Part shown: piece by piece, positions 2,203-36,922 of the stretch
Numbering within the stretch: the first letter of the stretch is position 1
Layout: every line of letters starts with the position of its first letter
NCBI GenBank assembly: GCA_043800535.1
Contig: JAZDMV010000014.1
Span: 1 to 38,853, forward strand
From: a bacterium
GTDB taxonomy: Bacteria > Patescibacteriota > Minisyncoccia > Portnoybacterales > GWB1-42-6
Reading direction: 5' to 3'
Length of the DNA: 38,853 nt
Notes under the pieces: generated by a model
Databases searched by the model: none
Seen by the model: only the letters and a program-made list of their open reading frames with translations
What the model was told of the DNA's origin: nothing
Translations under genes and position numbers: made by a program

Positions 2203-4116
2203 ATGGACTTAGAAGAAATTAAAAAACGGCTTTATACGGACAAGCCGGAACTGGGCGCGCGGCCGGAAGCGCCAAAGAAATATGAGCCGGGCTTCGGCCA
2301 GGCGGGCCAGGATAGCCAGGGGCAGGGAAGCTGGGAGAAGGAGCCGGAAAAAATTGCCGGTCCGGGCTTAAGCAGCAAGACAAAAAAGTGGATAAAAACC
2401 GCGGTTTTGGTGTTGGCTGGGTTAGCGGTTGCGGCGGTCGGCATCTGGTTTATATTTTTTCGCAGCTCATTTGACAGCAAAAAAGTTTCGGTCATTGTTT
2501 ATGGCCGCGACAGGGTGGTCAGCGGAGAGGAGGTAAGCTATATGGTGCGTTATCAGAACGGCACGAAAGTTGATCTGAAAAACGTGAAGCTGACTTTTAT
2601 TTATCCTGAAGGCAGTTTGCCAAAGGACACGCAGAATTTGACAACTTTGGGGGAGGCGCAGACAAGCATAGTCGGCGTTCCGGATCTGCCGGCTGGGCAG
2701 GAAGGCAGCATGGAATTTCGGGCCAGCTTAACCGGCCTGAGGGGCGAACAGAAGCAGGCCATTGCAAAGTTAAGCTATAATCCTGGCGGGGCGAGCTCCG
2801 AGTTTGAAAATGAAGGGGAATTTTTGAGCGAAATTTTTATGGTGCCCATTGTGCTTGATTTTGATCTGCCCGAAAGAATTGTCAGCGGCCAGCCTTTAAC
2901 CATCGGATTAAAATACCTGAACACTTCTGACGTTTCGTTCTCTGGCGTGACGCTAAGTATTGAATATCCTTCGGGATTTGATTTTAATTCTTCTTCCCCC
3001 GTTCCGGCCGAAGCAGAAAACAAATGGCAGCTTGCGGAGATCGGGCCGCGCGAGGAGGGAAAAATAATAATTTCCGGCGTGCTTTCCGGGCTTGAAGGAG
3101 AAGTTAAATCATTTAAGGCCAAAGCCGAGCAAAAGCAGGGCGAAATTGTCAAAACAGTTTCCGAAGGCCTGGCTTCAACTTCCATTTCCTTATCCCCGCT
3201 TTCCGTTGCGCTGACAGTTAACAACAGCCGCGATTATTCTGCCAATCCGGGCGAGACCCTCAACTACAAGCTGGCTTATCAGAATTCAACCGATGTCCAG
3301 ATCGGTCCGGTTTTCATTGTTGTCAAATTTGACAGCAAGGTTCTGGATTTTTCAACCTTAAAAACAAACGGGTCTTTCAGCAGCATGGACAATTCAATAA
3401 CCTGGAATGAATCGGTCTTGCGCCAGCTTCGCATGCTGCAGCCGGGCGACAAAAATACGATTGAGTTTTCTCTCCAGGTCAAGGAAAAAGAGGAGTTGCC
3501 TATTAAAAATTTCAGCGACAAGAACTTTCTTGTCGGCGTTTCGGCCAAAATTAATTCGGTCAATATTCCGACCTCGCTTGTCGGCACGCGGCTTGAAGGA
3601 AACGATTCGCTTTCAACCAAATTAAATTCCGTGCTTTTGCTTTCGGCCAAAGGATATTTTAAGGATTCAATTATGCCAAATTCCGGGCCCATTCCGCCCA
3701 CGGTCGGCCAGCAGACAACTTATACGATATATTGGCAGATCGTTAATTTGGCTAACGAAGCAGAAAACGTGGTGGTGGAAAGTTATCTGCCGCCTTATGT
3801 CAGCTGGCTTGGCCGGTTTGAGCCCCCTGACAGCGCCGTTAAATACGATAAAAACAGCGGCAAAATTACCTGGACAATAGGAAAACTGGCGGCCAACACA
3901 GGCATTCTTTCGCCTGTTAAGCAATTGGTTTTCCAGATTGCGCTTCTGCCAAACAGCAACCAGGTTGGCAGCGAGGTCGTGCTTGTAAAAGAATCGGCTA
4001 TCAGCGGGTTAGATGCTTTTACGGCGGCTTCCCTTAATGGCGTTGCCAAACAAATTGAAAGCGATCTGCCTGACGATTCATCCATGATTTATGGCGGCGG
4101 CAAGATCAGGCAATGA
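2203..4116 (+). CDS. Hypothetical membrane-anchored protein with a repetitive beta-rich extracellular region
   Basis: 637-aa ORF. It has a charged N-terminus, one TM helix (AVLVLAGLAVAAVGIWFIFF), then repeated ~100-aa segments with DUF11/CARDB-like character (fold assignment is my inference). Confidence 0.8.
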   Translation: MDLEEIKKRLYTDKPELGARPEAPKKYEPGFGQAGQDSQGQGSWEKEPEKIAGPGLSSKTKKWIKTAVLVLAGLAVAAVGIWFIFFRSSFDSKKVSVIVYGRDRVVSGEEVSYMVRYQNGTKVDLKNVKLTFIYPEGSLPKDTQNLTTLGEAQTSIVGVPDLPAGQEGSMEFRASLTGLRGEQKQAIAKLSYNPGGASSEFENEGEFLSEIFMVPIVLDFDLPERIVSGQPLTIGLKYLNTSDVSFSGVTLSIEYPSGFDFNSSSPVPAEAENKWQLAEIGPREEGKIIISGVLSGLEGEVKSFKAKAEQKQGEIVKTVSEGLASTSISLSPLSVALTVNNSRDYSANPGETLNYKLAYQNSTDVQIGPVFIVVKFDSKVLDFSTLKTNGSFSSMDNSITWNESVLRQLRMLQPGDKNTIEFSLQVKEKEELPIKNFSDKNFLVGVSAKINSVNIPTSLVGTRLEGNDSLSTKLNSVLLLSAKGYFKDSIMPNSGPIPPTVGQQTTYTIYWQIVNLANEAENVVVESYLPPYVSWLGRFEPPDSAVKYDKNSGKITWTIGKLAANTGILSPVKQLVFQIALLPNSNQVGSEVVLVKESAISGLDAFTAASLNGVAKQIESDLPDDSSMIYGGGKIRQ

Positions 4117-8271: not shown

Positions 8272-9540
8272 ATGTTCAAGAAATATACATTATCAAATGG
8301 TCTTCGGGTGATCCTGGCGCCGATGGAAGGAGCGCAATCGGTGACGGTTTTGGTATTGGTCGGCACGGGCTCAAAATATGAGACAAAAAAGATCAACGGC
8401 ATCTCGCACTTTCTTGAACACATGTTTTTTAAAGGCACAAAAAAGCGGCCGACAACCATGGAAATCACCTCGGCTCTTGATTCTGTCGGCGGCGCATATA
8501 ACGCTTTCACTGACAAAGAGATGACCGGCTATTGGGCCAAAGTTGATTTCAAACATTTTGACCTGGCGCTTGACTGGGTGGCGGACATCTTTTTGAATTC
8601 AAAAATAGAGGCCGAAGAAGTGGAAAGAGAAAAGGGAGTGATTTTGGAAGAGATCAATATGTATCTGGACACGCCGATGAGATACATCGGCGATCTTTGG
8701 GAGCAGCTTTTATACGGCGACCAGCCGGCCGGTTGGATGATCGCGGGAGAAAAGGAAATCATAAGAGATTTGAAACAGCCGCAATTTATAAAATATTTGC
8801 GGAACCAGTATGTGGCCAAAAACACCATTGTTGTTGTGGCGGGGAACGACAAACAAGTCCAAAGTTCAAAATCCAAAATTCAAAGTTTTTTCAAGGGAAT
8901 AAAGGCGGGAAATTTAAAAAATAAATTAAAAGCGATTGAAAAACAGAACAAGCCGGGTTTAAAAGTGTATTTCAAAGAGACCGACCAGACGCATCTAATC
9001 CTGGGCTGCCGCGGCTATAATGTTTTTGATAAAAATAGATATGCCGCCGTTTTGCTGGGTACGATTTTAGGCGGCTATATGAGCTCGCGGCTTTGGACAG
9101 AAGTGCGGGAACGCAGAGGATTGGCTTATTATGTTCGCGCGGCGCACGAAAATTATACTGATACCGGCTATCTGGCAGCCCATGCCGGAGTTGATAACAC
9201 AAGGGTTGATGACGCGATAAAAGTCATCCTGGACGAATTTAAAAAAGCAAAAGAGCATAAAATTCCCGAAGCCGAAATAAAAAAAGCCAAAGACCATATT
9301 CGGGGTTCAACGCTTCTTTCGCTTGAATCTTCCGACGAAGTGGCCTCTTTTTTGGGCACGCAGGAGGTTCTGAAAAAAGAAATTATGCTGCCCGAGGAAT
9401 TTTTCAAAAAAATAGAAAAAGTGACAGCGGCTGACCTCCAGCGCGTCGCCCGCGATATCTTCCGGCCAGAAAAATTAAACCTGGCCCTAATCGGGCCGTT
9501 TAAGGAAAAAGATAAATTTGAGAAGTTATTAAAGATATAA
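8272..9540 (+). CDS. M16 family (pitrilysin/insulinase-like) zinc peptidase
   Basis: 422-aa ORF with the inverted zinc motif HFLEHMFFKGT (HxxEH). Confidence 0.88.
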   Translation: MFKKYTLSNGLRVILAPMEGAQSVTVLVLVGTGSKYETKKINGISHFLEHMFFKGTKKRPTTMEITSALDSVGGAYNAFTDKEMTGYWAKVDFKHFDLALDWVADIFLNSKIEAEEVEREKGVILEEINMYLDTPMRYIGDLWEQLLYGDQPAGWMIAGEKEIIRDLKQPQFIKYLRNQYVAKNTIVVVAGNDKQVQSSKSKIQSFFKGIKAGNLKNKLKAIEKQNKPGLKVYFKETDQTHLILGCRGYNVFDKNRYAAVLLGTILGGYMSSRLWTEVRERRGLAYYVRAAHENYTDTGYLAAHAGVDNTRVDDAIKVILDEFKKAKEHKIPEAEIKKAKDHIRGSTLLSLESSDEVASFLGTQEVLKKEIMLPEEFFKKIEKVTAADLQRVARDIFRPEKLNLALIGPFKEKDKFEKLLKI

Positions 9541-9544
9541 TTTT

Positions 9545-10564
9545 ATGGACGAGAAAAAAACAACTGAAATTACAACCACGACAATTTTAAAGGCCATAGC
9601 TATAATCCTTGGCGTGGTTTTTATTTATCTTATCAGGAATATTTTGCTAATGCTGTTTGTGTCGGTTATCATAGCTTCGGCCGTGGACGCGCCGATTGAC
9701 TGGCTGGTACGGCATAAAATCAGGCGCGGGCTGGCAGTGGCCATGGTTTATGTTTTGGGCATTGCCATTTTTGGCGGAATGCTTTATTTTATAATCCCGC
9801 AGCTGGCCAGCCAGATGAAGCTTTTGGCTTCCAATATGCCAGAGTACCTCGGCGAGCTTGAAGGGAAACTGCAGTGGCTGGGAGGCAAATTTGGCATAGT
9901 CAGTATGCAGGATTTGTTTTCAAGCGTCGGCGATCGCCTCGGCATGGCGGCAAGCGACCTTTTTGTGGCAACGATAAACTTTTTTGGCGGCGTTTTTTCG
10001 GCCCTGATCGTTTTGATAATTTCAATATACGTGGCGGTGAAAGAACAGGCGGTCAAGAAGTTTTTTGTTTCGCTTTCACCGGCAAAATATGAGGCATATA
10101 TTGAAAATCTGACAGACCGCATTCTTTATAAGCTCGGCGCCTGGTTTCGCGGCCAGATAATTTTGATGGCGGTGATTGGCGTCATGACATATATAGGGCT
10201 TACTTTGCTTAAAGTAAAATTCGCCCTGACGCTGGCCTTGATCGTCGGGCTTTTGGAAATAGTGCCGATAATAGGGCCGATCATTGCGGCCGTGCCGGCA
10301 ATTTTATTCGCTTTATTACAATCGCCTGGCCTGGCTCTTTTGACCGCTGCTTTATATTATGTAATTCAGGAATTGGAAAAATATCTTATCGTGCCGCTGG
10401 TGATGAAGCGAGCAGTGGGACTGAATCCCATATCCATTATGGTGGCGGTCTTGATCGGTGTGGAACTTCACGGCATTATAGGCGCGATTATCGCCATTCC
10501 TGTGGCGGCGGTCATTTCTATTATTTTTCGCGATATAATGTCGAGCCGTAAGGCACAGGCATAA
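9545..10564 (+). CDS. AI-2E family transporter (PerM/UPF0118)
   Basis: 339-aa polytopic membrane ORF. LLEIVPIIGPIIAAVPA is typical of the family. Confidence 0.8.
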   Translation: MDEKKTTEITTTTILKAIAIILGVVFIYLIRNILLMLFVSVIIASAVDAPIDWLVRHKIRRGLAVAMVYVLGIAIFGGMLYFIIPQLASQMKLLASNMPEYLGELEGKLQWLGGKFGIVSMQDLFSSVGDRLGMAASDLFVATINFFGGVFSALIVLIISIYVAVKEQAVKKFFVSLSPAKYEAYIENLTDRILYKLGAWFRGQIILMAVIGVMTYIGLTLLKVKFALTLALIVGLLEIVPIIGPIIAAVPAILFALLQSPGLALLTAALYYVIQELEKYLIVPLVMKRAVGLNPISIMVAVLIGVELHGIIGAIIAIPVAAVISIIFRDIMSSRKAQA

Positions 10565-22465: not shown

Positions 22466-22589
22466 AAGTTCAAATGTCAAAGCGCAAATGTCAGGTTCTC
22501 GACGCGTCCCGCACTGTGCGGGGCTTGCTCGAACAATAATTTTATTTTATTCTTCGAGCGAGCGAAGCGAGTCGAGAAGTTAGAACAAT
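22466..22589. repeat. Intergenic composite repeat (ttcaaa-type low complexity, ccc-gc hairpin, ctcgaacaataat/ttattcttcgagcg module)
   Basis: It has the hairpin cccgcactgtgcgggg. The ctcgaacaataat and ttattcttcgagcg..gtcgagaag blocks recur at 31537-31640. Confidence 0.7.
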
Positions 22590-25826: not shown

Positions 25827-26372
25827 TTATCCTTCGATACTTATACCGCCGTCAAATCTTGCTTTCGCGATAAGGAAATCTTGCAGCTTGGTCCATTCAG
25901 TAGTACCGGCAGGTTTGACCAGCGGCGTCAACTGAAGTTTAAGGTGTTTGACCTCGTTTTTTGGGATGCCGAGGACTTGGGTGATAATAAGAATGCCACG
26001 TTTAAAGGCGATTAAAGGGAAATAGGAATTTTTTGGCAGGTGAAAAATAAAACTTAGCCAGTTTTCTTGTGTAAGATAAAAATCTGTAAATTTGCCATCG
26101 GCGATCAAAGGGTTAATCCTCTGCGTGACTGTGGCTATGACTCGCGGGTCATTTTTTTGGCCATGAGCCCACCACAATGGCGTCGTGATCTGGCCATGTT
26201 GATTATCTTTTTGTCGCACCAGAACATAGCTGGCGTGATAGCAATTATGTCTTGCCACACAACGGGGCCCTGCCTTTGTTGGTTCCGTCTGGTCCGGTAA
26301 TAGCAGATCAGTGAATTTTGCACTGCTTCCATCAAAATCCCACAATAGTCGCATTCGCAGCTTTTCTTTCAT
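25827..26372 (-). CDS. Hypothetical protein (orphan, 181 aa) on a repeat-flanked cassette
   Basis: SD aaaggagg lies 6 nt upstream of the ATG. A possible own promoter on minus is TTGACT-17-TATTTT. I recognise no family. Confidence 0.65.
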   Translation of the reverse strand: MKEKLRMRLLWDFDGSSAKFTDLLLPDQTEPTKAGPRCVARHNCYHASYVLVRQKDNQHGQITTPLWWAHGQKNDPRVIATVTQRINPLIADGKFTDFYLTQENWLSFIFHLPKNSYFPLIAFKRGILIITQVLGIPKNEVKHLKLQLTPLVKPAGTTEWTKLQDFLIAKARFDGGISIEG

Positions 26373-30304: not shown

Positions 30305-30443
30305 AAAAGTTAAAAGTTTAAAGTGAAAAGTTAAAAATTGCAGTTTATAGTTTAAAGTTTTAAATATGCACTGCGCCGCGATATACCAAAACTTTTCATT
30401 TTTAATTTTAAACTTATGTATTAGCGCGTTAACGCGCTAATAC
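30305..30443. repeat. A/T-rich aaagt-type low-complexity repeat plus a 30-bp perfect palindrome at the dprA stop
   Basis: aagtgaaaagttaaaa (30321-30336) is identical to metG-internal 13099-13114. The palindrome is atgtattagcgcgtt/aacgcgctaatacat (30414-30443). Confidence 0.8.
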
Positions 30444-31523
30444 ATAGTTCATTCCTCCCAGATTTTTAATTTTTCCCTTCATCTCCATCAGGATCATTGT
30501 TGCGTTGACGGACGCGGTATTCATTTTAGTTTGTTCAACGATTTTGTCAATATGGGTTGGCTCGTCGTTCAGAATCTCTAAAATTTTTGCTTCCTCTTCG
30601 TTATCGGGAATGATCTGGCGGACCTGAATTTGTTCGCTTAAACTTTTTAGGTTTAATTCTTCCAGGACGTCATTGGTGTCGCAAACCAATTTTGCGCCCA
30701 TTTTTATCAGGTTATTGGGGCCGGCTGAATACGGCGAATAAATTGGTCCCGGAACTGCGAAAACCTCGCGGTTTTGTTCTAAGCTGTGTTTGGCAGTAAT
30801 CAGCGCCCCTGATCTTTCTTTGGCCTCTATAACTAATGTGCCAAGCGACAGCCCGCTGATAATTCTGTTGCGGGCGTGGAAGTGGTGTTTTAAGGCAGGA
30901 GAGCCAATGGGATATTCTGAAATAACGGCGCCTTTTTCGCTTATTTGTTGCGCCAATTTTCTGTTTGAAGGCGGATAAATGCTTGGGTCGTCAATGCCGG
31001 AGCCGACAACGGCGATAGTACGCCTGCTGTTTTGTAACGCTGCAAGATGAGCTAATGTATCAATGCCGCGGGCCAGGCCCGAAACGATGGTCAATCCGGC
31101 TTGAGCGATCTGGCCGGCCAGATGCGAAGTGACCTGCTGGCCGTAGGAAGACGGGATTCGCGTGCCGACAATGGCGAGCGCCTTTTCGTCCTCGGGGATA
31201 AGGTGACCCCTTACATATATAATAGCAGGCGGGTCGTATATCTCTTTTAAGAGCTTGGGATAATTTTCGTCCAGAATTGTCATGACACTGATGCCGTGCG
31301 TCTCTAATTTTTCAAGTTCTTTGTCCGGGTCAATTGTAATCCTTTGGGCGCATAATTCGTTGACGATATTTTCTTCCAGCCCGGCTTTTTGCAGGTCATA
31401 CTCGCTGGCACGCCACGCATCTTCGAGGCCGCCAAAATAATTAAGAAGCCGCTTTATCCTCTGCGGCCCGATATGCTCGTGGAATTGATTGAAAGCGATA
31501 AAATATTTTGCCTGGGGATGCAT
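30429..31523 (-). CDS. dprA: DNA-processing protein DprA (Smf)
   Basis: SGLARGID..AH, the HF.ARNRIISGLS..TLV.EA..RSGALITA block, and REVFAVPG. Confidence 0.9.
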   Translation of the reverse strand: MHPQAKYFIAFNQFHEHIGPQRIKRLLNYFGGLEDAWRASEYDLQKAGLEENIVNELCAQRITIDPDKELEKLETHGISVMTILDENYPKLLKEIYDPPAIIYVRGHLIPEDEKALAIVGTRIPSSYGQQVTSHLAGQIAQAGLTIVSGLARGIDTLAHLAALQNSRRTIAVVGSGIDDPSIYPPSNRKLAQQISEKGAVISEYPIGSPALKHHFHARNRIISGLSLGTLVIEAKERSGALITAKHSLEQNREVFAVPGPIYSPYSAGPNNLIKMGAKLVCDTNDVLEELNLKSLSEQIQVRQIIPDNEEEAKILEILNDEPTHIDKIVEQTKMNTASVNATMILMEMKGKIKNLGGMNYVLAR

Positions 31524-31536
31524 TATAGCATTTTAT

Positions 31537-31640
31537 TCTTCGAGCGGAGCGCTACAACGTAACGTCGTAGCGCGTAGTCGAGAAGTTTTTCTGAAGGATT
31601 GGTCCTCGACTCGGTTTCACCTCGCTCGAACAATAATCTT
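31537..31640. repeat. Intergenic composite repeat related to 22500-22589
   Basis: It shares ttattcttcgagcg..gtcgagaag and ctcgaacaataat modules, with an internal hairpin gcgctacaacgtaacgtcgtagcgc. Confidence 0.7.
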
Positions 31641-31666
31641 TTTAAACTATAACATCAAAAAAAATC

Positions 31667-31706
31667 CGCGACAAATTTGACAGGATTTCATTACTCATCT
31701 TAATAT
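31667..31706 (+). promoter_or_regulatory. Promoter of island ORF A, with the shared 16-mer
   Basis: cgcgacaaatTTGACA (31667-31682), 17/18-nt spacer, TTAATA/TAATAT (31700-31706). A second TTGACA box lies at 31721-31726. Confidence 0.5.
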
Positions 31707-31781
31707 AAATAAACCGTTCTTTGACAAACCGTGCTTGGCTAAAACCTTTAACCTTCAACACCAAGAAAGGAGCGTACTCAT

Positions 31782-32777
31782 ATGAAGACGCCTGAGAAGT
31801 ATTGGTTCAATGATGCAGAGGAGATTAGAAAACATCTGGGGAATCTGGCTGATTTTAAGAAACTCGTTGACGCGCGGGTCAAAAACGCCGAACAAGGCGA
31901 GAACAACAATCCGTTTGTCATTTTTGGCCGTTTCCTTTTGGACCGCGGCAAAGACAAGCCAATCCAATTTTATCGCCCGCCGATCGTGGAAAGGTTTCCG
32001 GCGATCAGAGACGTTGTAACTGTGGCGGAGGTTGAGGAAGCTTTCCGGCCTCGGACCATTTTTTTCCAGAATTTCTCGACTTCAGAATATTTCATACCGG
32101 ACAGCGTCAATGTTTGCGAAGCTTGCGGTCTTGGCTGGAATATCAAGAATTGCCATGACCTTAAGCATGTGGAAACGCGTTTGGATCCGATTGAGCTGAT
32201 TGAATGGATCGGCCGCAAATTCGGTGATGTCAAAGCGCATTTCCTGGTGCCAAGAGGCAGCATGATCCGTCTGCTTAGGCGGCAGGGCTGGCGGCAGGGC
32301 TGGATGTATAATTTACAATGGAATCCTACTAAGGACGTGAAAGATGTTGATGTTAAGCCCGGCGATGATTATGTTGTTAAACAAGGCGACCGTTTGTGCC
32401 TGGAAGTTTATTCGCTTTTTCATGAAAATTGTTTCAGATCGCATATGATGAAAAAGCGAACAGAGGAGGTCCGGGCTTTGTTTCCAGCTGCTGGCTTCGG
32501 CGAACTTTGGCCGGAGTTGGTCGTAAAAAAAACATCGCGCCATGGGGAAACGGATATTGTCTGGCGCGTCTATACCTTCTTTGGTGCGCTGGAAATCACT
32601 GGCGATGATTGGGGTAAGTTTAAGATCAGTGGTCATCTTTGCGGCCGGGAACTTTCAGAAATAGTTAGCGGTCGGCAGGGGCGTATCCGCTATTGGGACA
32701 TCGAAGGTAACGCCAAAGAACTCGTTGATCAGTTGATTAAGATCCGCGAGACCATAGAGAAAGAAAATAGGAAGTAA
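31782..32777 (+). CDS. Hypothetical protein, 331 aa, Cys/His-rich (island ORF A)
   Basis: SD aaggag lies 9 nt upstream. It has the motifs CEACGLGWNIKNCHDLKH and HENCFRSH. I recognise no family. Confidence 0.7.
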   Translation: MKTPEKYWFNDAEEIRKHLGNLADFKKLVDARVKNAEQGENNNPFVIFGRFLLDRGKDKPIQFYRPPIVERFPAIRDVVTVAEVEEAFRPRTIFFQNFSTSEYFIPDSVNVCEACGLGWNIKNCHDLKHVETRLDPIELIEWIGRKFGDVKAHFLVPRGSMIRLLRRQGWRQGWMYNLQWNPTKDVKDVDVKPGDDYVVKQGDRLCLEVYSLFHENCFRSHMMKKRTEEVRALFPAAGFGELWPELVVKKTSRHGETDIVWRVYTFFGALEITGDDWGKFKISGHLCGRELSEIVSGRQGRIRYWDIEGNAKELVDQLIKIRETIEKENRK

Positions 32778-32807
32778 TAACGAGCCAAGCGCGGTTTGAT
32801 TCAACAA

Positions 32808-32843
32808 AGCCGTTGCCTGTATCATCGGGCAATGGCTTTTTTA
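32808..32843 (+). terminator. Intrinsic terminator after island ORF A
   Basis: agccgttgcc (32808-32817) pairs with ggcaatggct (32828-32837), followed by tttttt. Confidence 0.7.
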
Positions 32844-32849
32844 TTTCCT

Positions 32850-32888
32850 CGCGACAAATTTGACATATTCGCTGTTTTGTTATAGATA
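32850..32888 (+). promoter_or_regulatory. Promoter of island ORFs B-C, with the shared 16-mer
   Basis: cgcgacaaatTTGACA (32850-32865), then TAGATA at a 17-nt spacing (32883-32888). A second TTGACA box lies at 32913-32918. Confidence 0.45.
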
Positions 32889-32933
32889 TAAAGAAAATCC
32901 AAAATCTGTTTTTTGACAAAGAGAGGAGGGTTT

Positions 32934-33428
32934 ATGAATGCCAAGCAGAGAAAATCTTTTTTGTCGTTCCTTTTTTGGGCAAGACGCACGCATGGCTATG
33001 CCGGAGGCGCAAAAGGGGACAATCTTTTAAGAGGAGGTAAGCAGTTTACATGCAGCCGCGGGGTGTTCTCTTACGGGGATACGTTTTTGGACCAAGACCC
33101 TTTTATTGGTCAAGAAACTGTGTGGCATGCCGATAGAGGATGGCTATGGGGAATGAATTATTATGGAGCTATGTTAAGGGCTGGCAAAAGGACTTTGGTG
33201 GTTTCGGCAGAAGAAACATATATGTTTCTTAAGTTTGCTCTTTTGGAGTGTGATGTCACGGCGCCATATAGGGGTCCCAAAAGCCATGCTGAGGGAAATT
33301 GGGTTTACGAAAATGAATGGACGCCCTGGAGCAAGCTTGAGCGTTTCTGCGGCACAGAAGCTATCTTCTACAAGGGTATATTGGTGTATCAGGGTGAGTA
33401 TCACGGAGGGGTGATTGGAACGAAATAA
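32934..33428 (+). CDS. DUF5680-like protein (island ORF B; tentative family call)
   Basis: SD gagaggaggg lies directly upstream of the ATG at 32934. The pattern Y.D.F....F.G.E.V.......WGMNYYG....FLK.AL......YRGP....G.W.Y.......F.G.E.I......VY...YHGG.I matches my recollection of DUF5680. Confidence 0.6.
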   Translation: MNAKQRKSFLSFLFWARRTHGYAGGAKGDNLLRGGKQFTCSRGVFSYGDTFLDQDPFIGQETVWHADRGWLWGMNYYGAMLRAGKRTLVVSAEETYMFLKFALLECDVTAPYRGPKSHAEGNWVYENEWTPWSKLERFCGTEAIFYKGILVYQGEYHGGVIGTK

Positions 33429-33448
33429 AGATCGGGAGGAGAAACGCT

Positions 33449-33748
33449 ATGTCTTCTATGAGTGAAAAAGATGTTATGGTCTATAAGGAAAAGGTGGAAA
33501 AGATGTCGCGGGGGGAATTAGAAAAAAATGCGAAAATTGAAATGAACTGGCTGGCCGATTGTTTCGGGCATTATGACGAATTCAAAACCGCCAGGGATGC
33601 CAGGCGGACGATGCATGATTTTAAGGGTGTGGAGGGATGGCTTAACCAGCTTTCTATATCAAGCAAAGAGCTCTGCATCTGTTTTGAGCGGTTGCATCAA
33701 ATTGCCAAGGAGGATATCAATCACAAGGAAAAATTTGACAGGGAATAA
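33449..33748 (+). CDS. Hypothetical 99-aa helical protein (island ORF C)
   Basis: SD gggaggag lies 7 nt upstream. It starts 20 nt after the ORF B stop, so it is probably co-transcribed. I recognise no family. Confidence 0.6.
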   Translation: MSSMSEKDVMVYKEKVEKMSRGELEKNAKIEMNWLADCFGHYDEFKTARDARRTMHDFKGVEGWLNQLSISSKELCICFERLHQIAKEDINHKEKFDRE

Positions 33749-33768
33749 ACATAAGTCCTGCAACTCAT

Positions 33769-33804
33769 CCGCGGATTCAAAATAGCTGAATCCGCGGTTT
33801 TTTT
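33769..33804. terminator. Bidirectional terminator (island ORF C / mfd)
   Basis: ccgcggattca (33769-33779) pairs with tgaatccgcgg (33787-33797), followed by ttttttt. Confidence 0.75.
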
Positions 33805-35863
33805 ATTTCTTCAATTCTTCCACCGCTTCGTTGAGCATCTGGACATAAAGATTCAGTCCAACCGCGTTGATGGAACCGCTTTGTTCTCGGCCCAAAATAT
33901 TGCCCGCGCCGCGGATTTCAAGGTCGCGCAAAGCGATTTGGTAGCCCGAGCCAAGCGCTTCGGCTTCTTTTAGCGCGTCAAGGCGCTGTTGCGCAATGTC
34001 AGTTAAGTTTTTTGCGTTATATAAAAAGTACGCGTAGGCCTGTTTGTCTGAGCGGCCGATGCGCCCGCGCAATTGGTAACTTTGTGCCAATCCTAAGCGC
34101 GTGGCGTTGGCGACTATTAATGTATTGACATTTGGAAAGTCCAGGCCGTTTTCAATGATGGTTGTGGCAATTAAAATATCAATTTGGCCGGCACCAAATT
34201 CATCCATAACTTTAATAAGCTGTTTTTCATGCAGGCGGCCATGCGCAATGCCGATTTTTGACTGCGGCGCTAATTTTTGAATTTGGCGCCGGGCCAGCTC
34301 GATCGTCTCGACACGATTGTGCAGATAGTAAACTTGCCCGCCGCGCTCTAATTCTTTTTCTATCGCTTCTTTGACTATTTTTTGCGAATATGGCTCAACG
34401 ATTGTTTTGACGCTTAGGCGTCCCGGCGGCGCGGTCTGAATTAATGAAATGTCGCGCAGGCCGGCGAGGGACAGATGCATGGTGCGAGGGATTGGCGTGG
34501 CGCTCATGCTTAAAACATCTACCCCGTAAAACTCACTTCGCTCGTCACGGGGCAGGCTCCCGTAAAACGCTTCGCCTGCTGGCGAATCGCCACGTGGCAA
34601 ACTTTTGCCGCGTCGCAGCCCTTTTAATATTTCTTTCTGCCTGACGCCATATCGTTGCTCTTCGTCAATAATAACCAGTCCCAGATTTTTAAATTCAACA
34701 TCTTTTTGGATCAGGCGGTGCGTGCCGATGGTAATGTCAATTTTGCCCTCTCTCATTTTTTTAATCGTTTCGCGCTGAAGTTTTTTTGATTCAAGCCGTG
34801 AGAGCAGGGCGATATTAACGGGAAATTTTTTGAGGCGTTTGGCAAAAGTCAGATAATGCTGGTGCGCCAAGATCGTAGTCGGTGCCAGCATCGCCACTTG
34901 TTTGCCGGCAGACACGGCCTTGAAAGCCGCGCGCAAAGCAACTTCTGTTTTGCCAAAGCCGACATCCCCACAGATCAACCGATCCATCGGCTTCTCCGAT
35001 TCCATATCTTTTTTTACGTCCTCGATCGCCCGCAGCTGGTCGTCGGTTTCTATGTATTCAAACGAATCTTCAAGTTCTCTTTGCAAAGCATCGTCAGGCG
35101 GGAATTGAAAGCCGCGGACAGCGGCGCGCCGCGCGTAAAGTTCAAATAGTTGCCTGGCTAGTTCAATCGCGCCCTCTTTGACTTTGCGTTTTGTTTTATA
35201 CCATAATGTGCCGCCGAGCCGATGGACGATAGGAGTCTCAAAGCCAATGTAGCGGGATAATTTATTTTCCAGTTCAAGCGGGACGTAAAGCGTGTCGTTT
35301 TTGGCGTAGGAAACAACAAAATATTTTTCCGTTGTGTCGGGCGTCGGCGTCTGGCCAGTCGCTTGGCCTCCGAGTTCTTTGGCATAACCTTTAAAAAATC
35401 CGATACCGTGATCAAGATGGACGAGGTATTCGCCGGGTTTTAAAGTGCTCAATAAATTCTTCGGCGCTTTTTTGACAAGCGATCTTTTTATTTCCTCGTC
35501 TTTTTTCAGGATCTTGACTTCAAGATGATAGATTTCGGCCAGGCGATTTCCAATAAACTCTGATCTATATGCTGTTTCGTTATTAACGGGGAATATATCC
35601 AGAATTCCGCCGCGTTGGGAAAATTCGCCTTTGGCGCCGAGTGTCTGGACACGTTCATATCCCATTTCGGTTAATCGGCGCAGAAGCTCAAACAAGTTTA
35701 TTCTCTCGTCTTTTTCAAGAAAAAGCGCGTTTTCTTTCCACCAGACCTGGGTTTTAGCCAGATTTTCAATTTTTGAAAAATTTTGCGAAAACCAAAAAAC
35801 ATCCCGCTCAAGAAAATAGGGGGTTATGCTGGCGATTAAAATTTTATTTCTGGCTTTATTCAT
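33803..35863 (-). CDS. mfd: Transcription-repair coupling factor, short form (686 aa) with an in-frame insertion
   Basis: RNAP-interacting block YLVHLDHGIG, helicase motifs GDVGFGKTEVA, DEEQRYG, SATPIPRT and GRIGRS. Most of the N-terminal UvrB-homology module seen in ~1150-aa Mfd is missing. Confidence 0.88.
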   Translation of the reverse strand: MNKARNKILIASITPYFLERDVFWFSQNFSKIENLAKTQVWWKENALFLEKDERINLFELLRRLTEMGYERVQTLGAKGEFSQRGGILDIFPVNNETAYRSEFIGNRLAEIYHLEVKILKKDEEIKRSLVKKAPKNLLSTLKPGEYLVHLDHGIGFFKGYAKELGGQATGQTPTPDTTEKYFVVSYAKNDTLYVPLELENKLSRYIGFETPIVHRLGGTLWYKTKRKVKEGAIELARQLFELYARRAAVRGFQFPPDDALQRELEDSFEYIETDDQLRAIEDVKKDMESEKPMDRLICGDVGFGKTEVALRAAFKAVSAGKQVAMLAPTTILAHQHYLTFAKRLKKFPVNIALLSRLESKKLQRETIKKMREGKIDITIGTHRLIQKDVEFKNLGLVIIDEEQRYGVRQKEILKGLRRGKSLPRGDSPAGEAFYGSLPRDERSEFYGVDVLSMSATPIPRTMHLSLAGLRDISLIQTAPPGRLSVKTIVEPYSQKIVKEAIEKELERGGQVYYLHNRVETIELARRQIQKLAPQSKIGIAHGRLHEKQLIKVMDEFGAGQIDILIATTIIENGLDFPNVNTLIVANATRLGLAQSYQLRGRIGRSDKQAYAYFLYNAKNLTDIAQQRLDALKEAEALGSGYQIALRDLEIRGAGNILGREQSGSINAVGLNLYVQMLNEAVEELKK
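34521..34612. repeat. In-frame repeat insertion between helicase motifs II and III of mfd
   Basis: Imperfect tandem cccgtaaaac(tca)cttcgc units (34522-34590), with hairpins ccccgt..acgggg and ggcaaa-ct-tttgcc. It encodes RGKSLPRGDSPAGEAFYGSLPRDERSEFYG. Confidence 0.7.
35796..35835. repeat. 40-bp direct repeat, copy 1 (inside the mfd 5' end)
   Basis: aaaacatcccgctcaagaaaatagggggttatgctggcga is identical to 35984-36023. Confidence 0.95.
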
Positions 35864-35937
35864 TATCTTATAGAATGCCAGGGATGTTTTTTCAGAAAGG
35901 GGTCGGGGAAACTGGGTGTTTCCCCGCGGTGGAAATA

Positions 35938-36051
35938 TTAAAACCGCAAGGTGTTAAGGAGAGAGCCGTATTCGGCGAACGACAAAACATCCCGCTCAAG
36001 AAAATAGGGGGTTATGCTGGCGACCAGAATTTTTTCATTTGTCCTTGACAT
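35938..36051 (-). pseudogene. Remnant duplicate of the mfd 5' end (37-codon ORF)
   Basis: It encodes MSRTNEKILVASITPYFLERDVLSF..., compared with MNKARNKILIASITPYFLERDVFWF in mfd. It contains 40-bp repeat copy 2 (35984-36023). Confidence 0.55.
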
Positions 36052-36074
36052 TCCTGTAGCTATTTGGGTATGAT
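36045..36074 (+). promoter_or_regulatory. Strong sigma70-like promoter driving the structured leader
   Basis: TTGACA (36045-36050), 18-nt spacer, TATGAT (36069-36074). Confidence 0.55.
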
Positions 36075-36084
36075 AGCGTATTCT

Positions 36085-36417
36085 AGTAAAAATAGCAAAG
36101 CGACTAGCAACTAGCCACTAGCGACTAGTAAGAGCTCATGCCAGTCGCTAATCTCTAGTCGCCAGTTGCTATCTATTCTGCCCAGCATCCTATCTGTGAG
36201 TGGCAAAAACCAAAACTATCCCTCCTATTGTTTTGGCAAGTAGCCGAAGTTTAGGGGTATCCTCCTTTTGGAGGCCAATCCCTGACGCTTGCAGGTAGGA
36301 TATTGGGCAGCATTTGTTTATCCTCACACCAGAAGATTATGGGCGTAAGCCAGTGGTGGATGATCTACGTGGTGTGAGGATTTAGCAGTCCTTTAAAAAT
36401 AAGCCGGAGAGGAGGAT
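36085..36417 (+). ncRNA. ~330-nt highly structured leader / candidate cis-regulatory RNA (class unknown)
   Basis: It has a 5' palindromic actagc-rich hairpin (36098-36175). A long-range helix pairs ctgcccagcatcctatctg (36178-36196) with caggtaggatattgggcag (36292-36310). A hairpin pairs atcctcacacc (36320-36330) with ggtgtgaggat (36371-36381). The anti-SD atcctcc (36259-36265) is complementary to the SD ggaggat (36411-36417). Confidence 0.45.
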
Positions 36418-36420
36418 CCT

Positions 36421-36612
36421 ATGGATAGAGATCTGATTATTATAATTAGTTTACTTGTTGTTGCGGTTGTCAGTTATGCTTTTCGGAATCCCGCACGGCC
36501 GGACAGGTATTGGAGGATTTTTTATAAGACGTGCATGTGGGCTGTTATAGCGTATTGTCTGTTATCTGCTTTATGGGACCTGGCAGCGCTTTTTTTCCCG
36601 ATCACTGAATGA
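36421..36612 (+). CDS. Small 2-TM membrane peptide (63 aa)
   Basis: SD gaggagga lies 4 nt upstream. There are two hydrophobic helices (LIIIISLLVVAVVSYAF and CMWAVIAYCLLSALWDLAALFF). Confidence 0.6.
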   Translation: MDRDLIIIISLLVVAVVSYAFRNPARPDRYWRIFYKTCMWAVIAYCLLSALWDLAALFFPITE

Positions 36613-36626
36613 AAGGAGGGAGAGAA

Positions 36627-36779
36627 ATGAAAATTATAACAGGGATAATTCTGGTGTTTGCATTCGTCTGGTTTGCTTCTCGAATAGGAGGTATGGATAA
36701 AAGCTTAAACAGTGTCGTGACATCGTTCGTGGCAGTAGTGATGTTGCTACTTCTATATTTACGGACAATTAAAGTTTAA
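36627..36779 (+). CDS. Small 2-TM membrane peptide (50 aa, below the ORF-track cutoff)
   Basis: SD aaggaggg lies 6 nt upstream of the ATG at 36627. The product is MKIITGIILVFAFVWFASRIGGMDKSLNSVVTSFVAVVMLLLLYLRTIKV. Confidence 0.55.
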   Translation: MKIITGIILVFAFVWFASRIGGMDKSLNSVVTSFVAVVMLLLLYLRTIKV

Positions 36780-36812
36780 ACTAAGGAATTCGGCTTTTTA
36801 AGGCAATTTTAA

Positions 36813-36845
36813 AAGAGGTTTCCTCGCGGAACCTCTTTTTTCTTT
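36813..36845 (+). terminator. Intrinsic terminator after the small-peptide pair
   Basis: aagaggtt(t)cc-tcgc-ggaacctctt, followed by ttttc. Confidence 0.7.
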
Positions 36846-36850
36846 GGCAG

Positions 36851-36920
36851 AAAATCTCCCCTTGCCCCTCCTAAAGGAGGGGAATTTTTTGCTCCCTCCC
36901 TTTAGGGAGGGCTGGGGAGG
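36851..36920. repeat. Double hairpin repeat of the cccctcc family
   Basis: cccctcc-taaa-ggagggg and ccctccc-ttta-gggaggg. It has the same style as 509-590 and 2041-2075. Confidence 0.75.
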
Positions 36921-36922
36921 AT

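Follow-up and report, generated by a model that had tools for sequence, protein, structure and literature searches.

The dprA-mfd junction of Candidatus Portnoybacteria is a gene-content hotspot, probably with independent, promoter-equipped cargo

Introduction

What are three plus-strand genes of no evident common kind doing between dprA and mfd, in a region of a bacterial chromosome where the large genes run the other way? Bacteria of the Candidate Phyla Radiation (CPR, or Patescibacteria) have tiny genomes whose accessory genes are mostly unexplained, and contig JAZDMV010000014.1 from a Candidatus Portnoybacteria genome offers a compact instance. We analyzed a stretch of 38,853 nucleotides from this contig (the window), apparently its entire length, in which genes A, B and C lie in a row between the two core genes. 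An earlier note on this DNA had proposed that the three genes form an insulated, co-regulated accessory island, possibly a defence, toxin-antitoxin or competence-related module. Here we show that the dprA-mfd junction is a gene-content hotspot, and we argue that within one Candidatus Portnoybacteria clade it is likely a site of gene gain, loss and replacement whose cargo genes are independent of one another and come equipped with a promoter.

Results

The dprA-mfd junction differs in content among close relatives

DprA-based scans of metagenomes and species-representative genomes identified Candidatus Portnoybacteria relatives with DprA proteins 55-92% identical to that of the window, the closest named relative in the species-representative genomes being PEYL01000085 (80%). 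The 17 relatives' loci that we compared, designated here by L numbers, represent 15 distinct junctions (L004, L005 and L019 share one) with seven kinds of content. The junction is empty in L009 (24 bp), L010 (167 bp), L020 and L042, holds a 34-codon mini-ORF (open reading frame) alone in L007, and holds a DUF5680 gene alone in L004, L005 and L019 (49% identical to B). L008 has a gene for an S-adenosylmethionine (SAM) methyltransferase together with a DUF5680 gene (55% identical to B), L006 has an unrelated 155-aa orphan ORF, and L021 and L022 have other orphan ORFs that are Cys-rich. L001, a 14-kb Joint Genome Institute (JGI) contig, is syntenic with the window (topA, dprA, A', DUF5715, C', mfd) and carries homologs of A and C on either side of a gene for a VanY-like DUF5715 protein unrelated to B. 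Its A' (P0002) is the single close homolog of A (51% identity). In the close relatives L001, L004-L006 and L008, all cargo genes point away from dprA and toward mfd.

Flanked by conserved core genes, and variably filled or empty in close relatives, the dprA-mfd junction is a gene-content hotspot. The earlier note had suggested looking for an empty site in relatives, and the empty and differently filled junctions bear out its view of an accessory island. B is independent of A and C, because it stands alone in L004, L005 and L019, accompanies a methyltransferase in L008 and is replaced by DUF5715 in L001, where A' and C' do without it; the idea of A-B-C as one module does not hold. Co-localization elsewhere, which the same note had made a test of its proposal, gave a divided answer: B is never found with A or C elsewhere, nor C with the wider A family, whereas A and C are found together, with order and site unchanged, in two genomes only.

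Each cargo transcription unit has its own copy of a divergent promoter core

The 16-mer CGCGACAAATTTGACA occurs exactly twice in the window, at 31667 and 32850, ahead of A and of B and with a consensus -35 box as the earlier note had described. Allowing up to three mismatches adds a single further match in the window, at an unrelated site. An exact 16-mer pair within 38.8 kb is statistically borderline taken alone; we regard the pair as certain because the same places are conserved in relatives. The first copy consists of two back-to-back divergent -35 boxes, one for dprA and one for A. Hexamers of the A promoter are identical between the window and L001, and its spacer differs. The dprA half, AAATTTGTC(G/A)-N17-TGnTATA(T/G)T, precedes dprA in many Portnoybacteria relatives, some of them without cargo, and in relatives lacking an inserted repeat element its -10 box lies about 9 nt from the dprA ATG, so the dprA mRNA is predicted to be nearly leaderless in relatives without a palindromic insert.

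A 14-nt core, CGACAAATTTGACA, is unchanged in eight of nine aligned promoter copies from six genomes, the ninth having TTGATA, and CGACAAATTTGA(C/T)A is invariant over all nine while neighbouring bases vary. Among the first 10 loci compared, the exact 14-mer is confined to the dprA-mfd junction. Every cargo transcription unit has a core copy of its own, with two each in L001, the window and L008 (in the last, one ahead of the methyltransferase and one ahead of DUF5680). The DUF5680 promoters of the window, L004 and L008 also have a -10/leader block, TATAAnTATAAAGAAAA, in common with the L006 promoter of the unrelated 155-aa ORF. In the nearly empty L007 junction the core is present with one change in its cargo -35 half (TTGATA). 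Because the core is found in L007, and because its left half is the -35 box of dprA and is conserved in the clade, we consider the 16-mer element a property of the site and not of the island, and not an island-specific operator. The common regulation of two units that had been suggested for the window thus stands in that both use copies of one promoter, and fails in that the core belongs to the site. The L007 interval (9718-10000 on a 302-kb contig) also contains a promoter-like TTGACA-17-TATACT and a terminator-like hairpin, its 34-codon mini-ORF is hydrophobic, and it gave no Rfam match at gathering score.

A second box, TTTGACAAA, does lie nearer each start (31720 and 32912), as the earlier note had pointed out. 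It occurs four times in the window against 1.2 expected, a number reached in 5 of 100 shuffles, and it is not conserved ahead of the L004 and L008 homologs of B; we therefore rejected it as an operator and attribute it to chance. A near-copy, GAAAAATTTGACAGG at 33728-33742, falls in the conserved KEKFDR-coding 3' end of C and was judged coincidental. Looser GACAAATTTGACA matches (two mismatches or fewer) are enriched across the window (14 versus 1.9 expected) and include a perfect palindrome, GTCAAATTTGAC, at 3321-3334 within an ORF.

We called -35 and -10 boxes by consensus hexamers and spacing, and terminators by a GC-rich hairpin followed by a T-run, with transcript ends inferred. These consensus features are present in the window and conserved across relatives as sequence matches, and they predict two transcription units, promoter-A-terminator and promoter-B-C-terminator. 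Both terminators of the earlier note were recovered as a hairpin plus T-run (Table 1), and that of A is kept in L001. The ORF list and the sequence likewise agreed with its account of three plus-strand ORFs amid minus-strand large genes, each with a strong Shine-Dalgarno site upstream, and of a 20-nt gap between B and C. For B we favour the ATG at 32934 over the TTG at 32913 because of the Shine-Dalgarno site AGAGGAGG and the MNAK/MDSK N-termini among its homologs. The inferred 5' untranslated region (UTR) of A is nearly the same in the window and L001 (65/68 identical, P ~1e-8 versus neutral sites), though the coding sequences are ~60% identical. It has no significant fold (z = 0.08) and no Rfam match, on which grounds we rejected a structured or known RNA there.

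A relic of mfd suggests that junction alleles were joined in tandem

In L008, the interval 8737-8988 between the methyltransferase and DUF5680 cassettes holds, right after the methyltransferase terminator, a relic, about 20 codons long, of the Mfd C-terminus. One frame of this spacer reads ...SNFELIVQMLNSAIEELKE and a stop codon (the relic also reads ...VQMLNSAIEELKE and a stop), compared with ...GLNLYVQMLNEAVEEMKK and a stop at the Mfd C-terminus, and the second promoter copy comes next. This relic suggests that the methyltransferase unit was once a complete junction allele ending at mfd that was later joined to a DUF5680 allele. In the window, the roughly 10 nt that follow the terminator of A (up to 32849) resemble the final codons and stop of mfd (GGCTTTTTTATTTCCTC against GGTTTTTTTATTTCTTC of the mfd stop region), a weaker relic. 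We infer that arrays at this junction form by stacking of alternative alleles. Site-specific recombination at the 16-mer was also considered; stacking was preferred on the strength of the Mfd C-terminus relic and the lack of a recombinase gene between or next to the flanking genes.

A and C are more diverged than the sequences around them

Comparing the window with L001, seven flanking genes show 62-92% amino acid identity and 0.49-0.67 identity at four-fold sites, with synonymous divergence (dS) of ~0.8-1.1 for topA, dprA and mfd. A reaches 52% amino acid identity and 0.30 four-fold-site identity (n = 43, P = 1e-5), and C 41% amino acid identity with too few four-fold sites to use (n = 4); dS was not computable for either. 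The synonymous sites of A are saturated. As a control we used hyp181, a 181-aa ORF without Pfam match in the parB-relA interval (25827-26372), because it is a fast-evolving protein with normal synonymous divergence (62% amino acid identity, synonymous identity 0.62). Around A, the promoter is 58/69 identical and the terminator with the second 16-mer 69/82 identical; homology ends within a few codons of the A ATG and returns ~10-20 nt past its stop. The alleles of A and C would on this evidence be older than the split of the two genomes, lodged in a shared regulatory frame. Because A and C are far more diverged than their flanks while the non-coding frame is conserved, the pattern points to allele exchange by recombination, possibly under balancing or diversifying selection.

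A belongs to an uncharacterized, largely phage-borne family

A contains CEACGLGWNIKNCHDLKH and HENCFRSH, in which the earlier note saw a sign of metal binding. A gave no match in Pfam, NCBIfam, PADLOC or PHROGs, none in PDB sequence and profile searches, and no relative in GTDB species genomes. Word-indexed homolog search was nearly blind here, returning one homolog of A, none of C, and four proteins with an 80-sequence profile. An exhaustive profile search with E <= 1e-3 as threshold returned 248 clusters, mostly of 310-390 aa, of which 64 reached E <= 1e-10, and A matches this unnamed family over most of its length. Residues C112, C115, H214 and C217 do not vary among 80 aligned members and are present in A. 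Their pattern, CxxC...HxxC, is a putative zinc site by which A is probably stabilized. GWRKRVI is carried by 58 of 153 family sequences; both it and IHAWG are absent from window A and L001 A', and window A aligns as a diverged family member whose C-terminal domain still matches. A also has a short in-frame tandem duplication (RRQGWRQGW, 32272-32301) that is absent from the L001 allele.

The C-terminal domain of A (residues 229-324) matched Xylella phage Salvo gp31 with an hhalign probability of 99.6% (E 4e-24). Family member P0013 matched hypothetical proteins of Caulobacter and Xanthomonas jumbo phages by tblastn (E 1e-7 to 1e-14), whereas window A as the sole tblastn query found no match in cultured phages. 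Scanning IMG/VR with the main-cluster alignment yielded 92 viral loci, among them many stand-alone C-terminal domains and, on contigs 224, 407 and 619 kb long, full-length members; IMG/VR scans with single protein queries gave no matches. Many family members sit in phage-like arrays of small same-strand ORFs, including one on a 102-kb contig. Neither the 80 family members nor the phage C-terminal-domain proteins matched Pfam or PHROG families. We conclude that this uncharacterized family is largely phage-borne.

An AlphaFold model of A built with the family alignment was confident (pLDDT 88.6, pTM 0.84; predicted local distance difference test and template modelling scores), and Foldseek found no match for it in the PDB or BFVD at E <= 1e-3 (TM, template modelling score, <= 0.22 relative to query). 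The fold predicted by this confident model thus appears to have no structural relative in either database. Small phage proteins stood near the top of the BFVD list, which fits the C-terminal-domain homology and is not significant.

B is a DUF5680 protein and C an orphan

The earlier note proposed DUF5680 for B, and correctly so: B matched Pfam PF18931 with E 2.3e-25 and 89.4 bits (cut-off 25) over model positions 1-104 of 104. The motifs WGMNYYG, YRGP and YHGG are present in B and largely invariant among homologs, and B homologs at the same junction (L004/L005/L019 and L008) are 49-55% identical. No PDB relative of B was found by sequence or profile, its single-sequence AlphaFold model had a pLDDT of 34, and NCBIfam, PADLOC and PHROGs scans gave noise only. 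We found no biochemical function or solved structure for DUF5680, for which a literature search was uninformative, as was one on DUF5715. Stand-alone DUF5680 proteins of 158 aa occur on Bacillus cereus-group megaplasmids; none were found in cultured phages.

C, described as helical in the earlier note, is an orphan with C' in L001 as its only relative (44% identity by BLASTP local alignment, 41% global). It had no match in Pfam, NCBIfam, PADLOC or PHROGs, and no C-like ORF was seen near other A-family members or in the other loci compared. Neither A nor C has a Pfam or NCBIfam match, and the profile search of A assigned it to no known family, in keeping with the view that these proteins do not resemble housekeeping families.

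Flanking genes and further features of the window

Pfam identified topA, dprA, a short mfd, pth, an LCP-family gene and relA/spoT among the flanks. Between 25.8 and 38.8 kb the large genes all lie on the minus strand, and the only plus-strand ORFs there besides A-B-C are two small ones at 36421-36779. Coordinates of the junction features are collected in Table 1.

Table 1. Features of the dprA-mfd junction in the window (positions of the 38,853-nt stretch)
Feature	Position	Strand	Description
dprA	30429-31523	-	left flank of A-B-C
Palindromic element in dprA leader	31533-31636		MITE/REP-like (miniature inverted-repeat transposable element/repetitive extragenic palindrome); terminal inverted repeats 31533-31546, 31623-31636
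dprA promoter	31646-31674	-	-35 TTGTCG at 31669-31674, 17-nt spacer, extended -10 TGnTATAGT (promoter scan)
16-mer copy 1	31667-31682	+	two back-to-back divergent -35 boxes: reverse complement of CGACAA (dprA), TTGACA (A)
Promoter of A	31677-31706	+	TTGACA, 18 nt, TAATAT; 10/12 consensus positions (promoter scan)
Inferred 5' UTR of A	31714-31781	+	Shine-Dalgarno AAAGGAG; transcription start inferred
Gene A	31782-32777	+	331 aa; ORF list and sequence
Predicted intrinsic terminator of A	32806-32839	+	14-pair stem, then T-run
16-mer copy 2	32850-32865	+	duplicated promoter core ahead of B-C unit
Predicted promoter of B-C	32860-32892	+	-35 TTGACA and -10 region TGTTATAGATATAAA; exact -10 hexamer ambiguous
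Gene B	32934-33428	+	164 aa, Pfam DUF5680
Gene C	33449-33748	+	99 aa, charged
Predicted intrinsic terminator of B-C unit	33769-33797 (T-run up to 33804)	+	11-pair stem, then T7; abuts mfd stop codon
Short mfd	33803-35863	-	right flank of A-B-C

The dprA leader contains an element with a strong predicted fold (z = -5.3) and a self inverted match, a partial copy of which lies between two genes at 22527-22581. Repeats are indeed present left of A, and what had been described as dispersed repeats is one structured palindromic element. Unrelated palindromic inserts occupy the same dprA-leader position in L001 (8133-8228) and L004 (~9925-9990).

Mfd of the window is short (686 aa), with UvrB-interaction, CarD/RID and helicase domains and no Pfam match to the TRCF C-terminal domain; among relatives its length is 657-741 aa, varying through internal insertions. 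Between mfd and pth (35864-36922) the window has a second small plus-strand unit, with a near-consensus promoter TTGACA-18-TATGAT at 36045-36074, and the mini-ORFs at 36421-36779 overlap and encode hydrophobic peptides of 63 and 56 aa. L001 has at this place a 151-aa ORF with weak, transporter-like Pfam matches, and the mfd-pth interval may be another variable spot.

Discussion

Taken together, these results favour a model in which the dprA-mfd site acts as a slot for cargo in one Candidatus Portnoybacteria clade. A sigma-70-type promoter would face away from dprA, its TTGACA lying back to back with the TTGTCG of dprA so that the two jointly make up the core, and a gene behind it would be transcribed toward mfd and end at its own intrinsic terminator. 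Different strains would place different, functionally independent cargo genes there, and two alternative junction alleles joined in tandem would duplicate the promoter and yield the layout of the window. In this model A would be phage-derived and probably zinc-stabilized, B a stand-alone DUF5680 protein and C an orphan travelling with A. A and C would be deeply diverged alleles in a conserved regulatory frame, the pattern expected where recombination exchanges genes and conflict, most plausibly with phages, maintains their diversity. Because A is related to phage proteins and the alleles appear ancient, we suggest, with low confidence, a part in the conflict between phage and host.

Several observations weigh against this model. 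The promoters and terminators are consensus matches throughout, and the case for stacking consists of a clear relic in L008 and a weak one in the window. A and C are present together in two genomes only, and the choice between exchange and fast evolution in place depends on 43 four-fold codons and their saturation. Second copies of the 16-mer retain its upstream half, which in them has lost its role for dprA, and this retention could mean a bound regulator rather than mere inheritance. The A family is not exclusively viral, in that distant relatives in CPR chromosomes sit singly among housekeeping genes, and no known-domain match supports a part in phage conflict.

Four other readings of the island, and one extension of our own, bear on how these points are taken. 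It is possible, if doubtful, that A and C are a functional pair, such as an effector with a modulator or antidote, or a phage exclusion system, and that the middle gene is an unrelated inserted passenger. The two are found together in both genomes with this A type, with gene order and site shared, their low identities (52% and 41% against 62-92% in the flanks) are the pattern of co-evolving or co-transferred partners, and the slot between them is the part that is swapped (DUF5680 here, DUF5715 in L001). However, two genomes make up the whole sample, a terminator and a promoter place A and C in separate transcription units, C is without further homologs or a counterpart near other A-family members, distant A-family genes are solitary, and no PADLOC match was found for the pair.

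Less likely, and compatible with the hotspot model, is that the core CGACAAATTTGACA, which holds the 8-bp palindrome CAAATTTG, is also a transcription-factor site coupling the dprA and cargo promoters to one signal, for example a competence-like or stress regulon. Conservation speaks for it: the core is kept in eight of nine copies in genomes whose DprA proteins are only 78-92% identical and whose surrounding sequence varies, the conserved copies include second ones in which the dprA half has no promoter role, and the exact core was seen nowhere else in the first 10 loci compared. Yet two overlapping -35 functions and recent duplication may account for that conservation, and looser AAATTTGACA versions are enriched in the window (14 versus 1.9 expected at two mismatches or fewer), suggesting a general promoter context. 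The locus contains no candidate regulator, and the motif is missing from L009 and L010, which are more distant relatives.

More improbable still is a bolder extension of the hotspot model, in which the divergent dprA promoter core would be a capture-and-express slot in CPR bacteria, where incoming DNA, perhaps arriving by dprA-dependent transformation, would become fixed in the form of promoter-tagged cassettes, and in which A and C would be a phage-derived two-protein conflict system with ancient alleles under balancing selection.

The remaining readings are highly improbable. A single co-regulated three-component system for defence, toxin-antitoxin or competence would account for the same promoter core ahead of both units and for the insulating terminators, and proximity to dprA might suggest a competence link, but B occurs without A and C, A' and C' occur with DUF5715 in its place, and the core stands, with one base changed, in the nearly empty L007. 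No PADLOC-DB 2.0 model matched A, B or C at E <= 1, and Pfam and NCBIfam revealed no toxin or antitoxin domain in any of them. Nor is a toxin-antitoxin layout seen: A and C are split by a terminator, a promoter and gene B, and the adjacent pair is B-C, but B is found without C elsewhere. The defence or toxin-antitoxin role proposed in the earlier note is therefore not sustained, and on present evidence the locus does not reveal a new multi-gene system. We give equally little weight to a decayed prophage or integrative element that brought in A, which the predominance of the A family on viral contigs would suit, but between dprA and mfd there are no integrase, structural or replication genes, no tRNA target (the sole tRNA in the window is at 23.2 kb) and, apart from the promoter copies, no repeats that could be attachment sites; core genes flank the site intact, and what relatives carry there amounts to one or two unrelated genes.

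We return, then, to the hotspot with independent cargo. The locus is a clean, small example of accessory-gene turnover, in which a fixed expression slot beside a core-gene promoter would receive strain-specific orphan cargo. The A family, with at least 248 clusters, four invariant Cys/His residues, a confidently predicted fold lacking a known relative and members in both very large phages and CPR chromosomes, would reasonably be chosen for structural work and for testing a role in phage-host conflict.

Flexible genomic islands between core genes, of replacement and additive types, occur in marine bacteria and enterobacteria. The dprA-mfd site is like them in its conserved core flanks, its empty, single-gene and multi-gene variants, its deeply diverged alleles within conserved borders and its cargo of unknown or conflict-type function. 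It differs in being very small (0-3 genes), in having no tRNA, integrase or integron machinery, in linking every cargo unit to a copy of one and the same promoter, itself paired divergently with that of a core gene, and in the relative (L008) whose Mfd C-terminus relic suggests an array formed by stacked alternative alleles. Integron arrays are similar in layout only, with promoter-proximal, unrelated single-gene units in one orientation and a short repeat at each boundary. Here, in contrast, each unit is predicted to have its own promoter and terminator where integrons use a single Pc, the repeat is a -35 region, and no attC-like imperfect palindromes are present; there is no intI at the junction (the window as a whole was not searched for an integrase), the flanks are dprA and mfd, and the cassette ends are terminators and a promoter copy.

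At the level of proteins, B resembles the Pfam DUF5680 family in its full-model match and is similar in size to the Bacillus cereus-group megaplasmid proteins, and differs from these in residing in a hotspot of a CPR chromosome. Homologs of the C-terminal domain of the A family are Salvo gp31, gp436 of Caulobacter phage CcrSC and similar jumbo-phage proteins of ~100 aa, all of them outside existing PHROG and Pfam families. These phage proteins have that single domain, whereas A adds a domain of ~230 aa with the CxxC...HxxC pattern and appears to have lost GWRKRVI and IHAWG.

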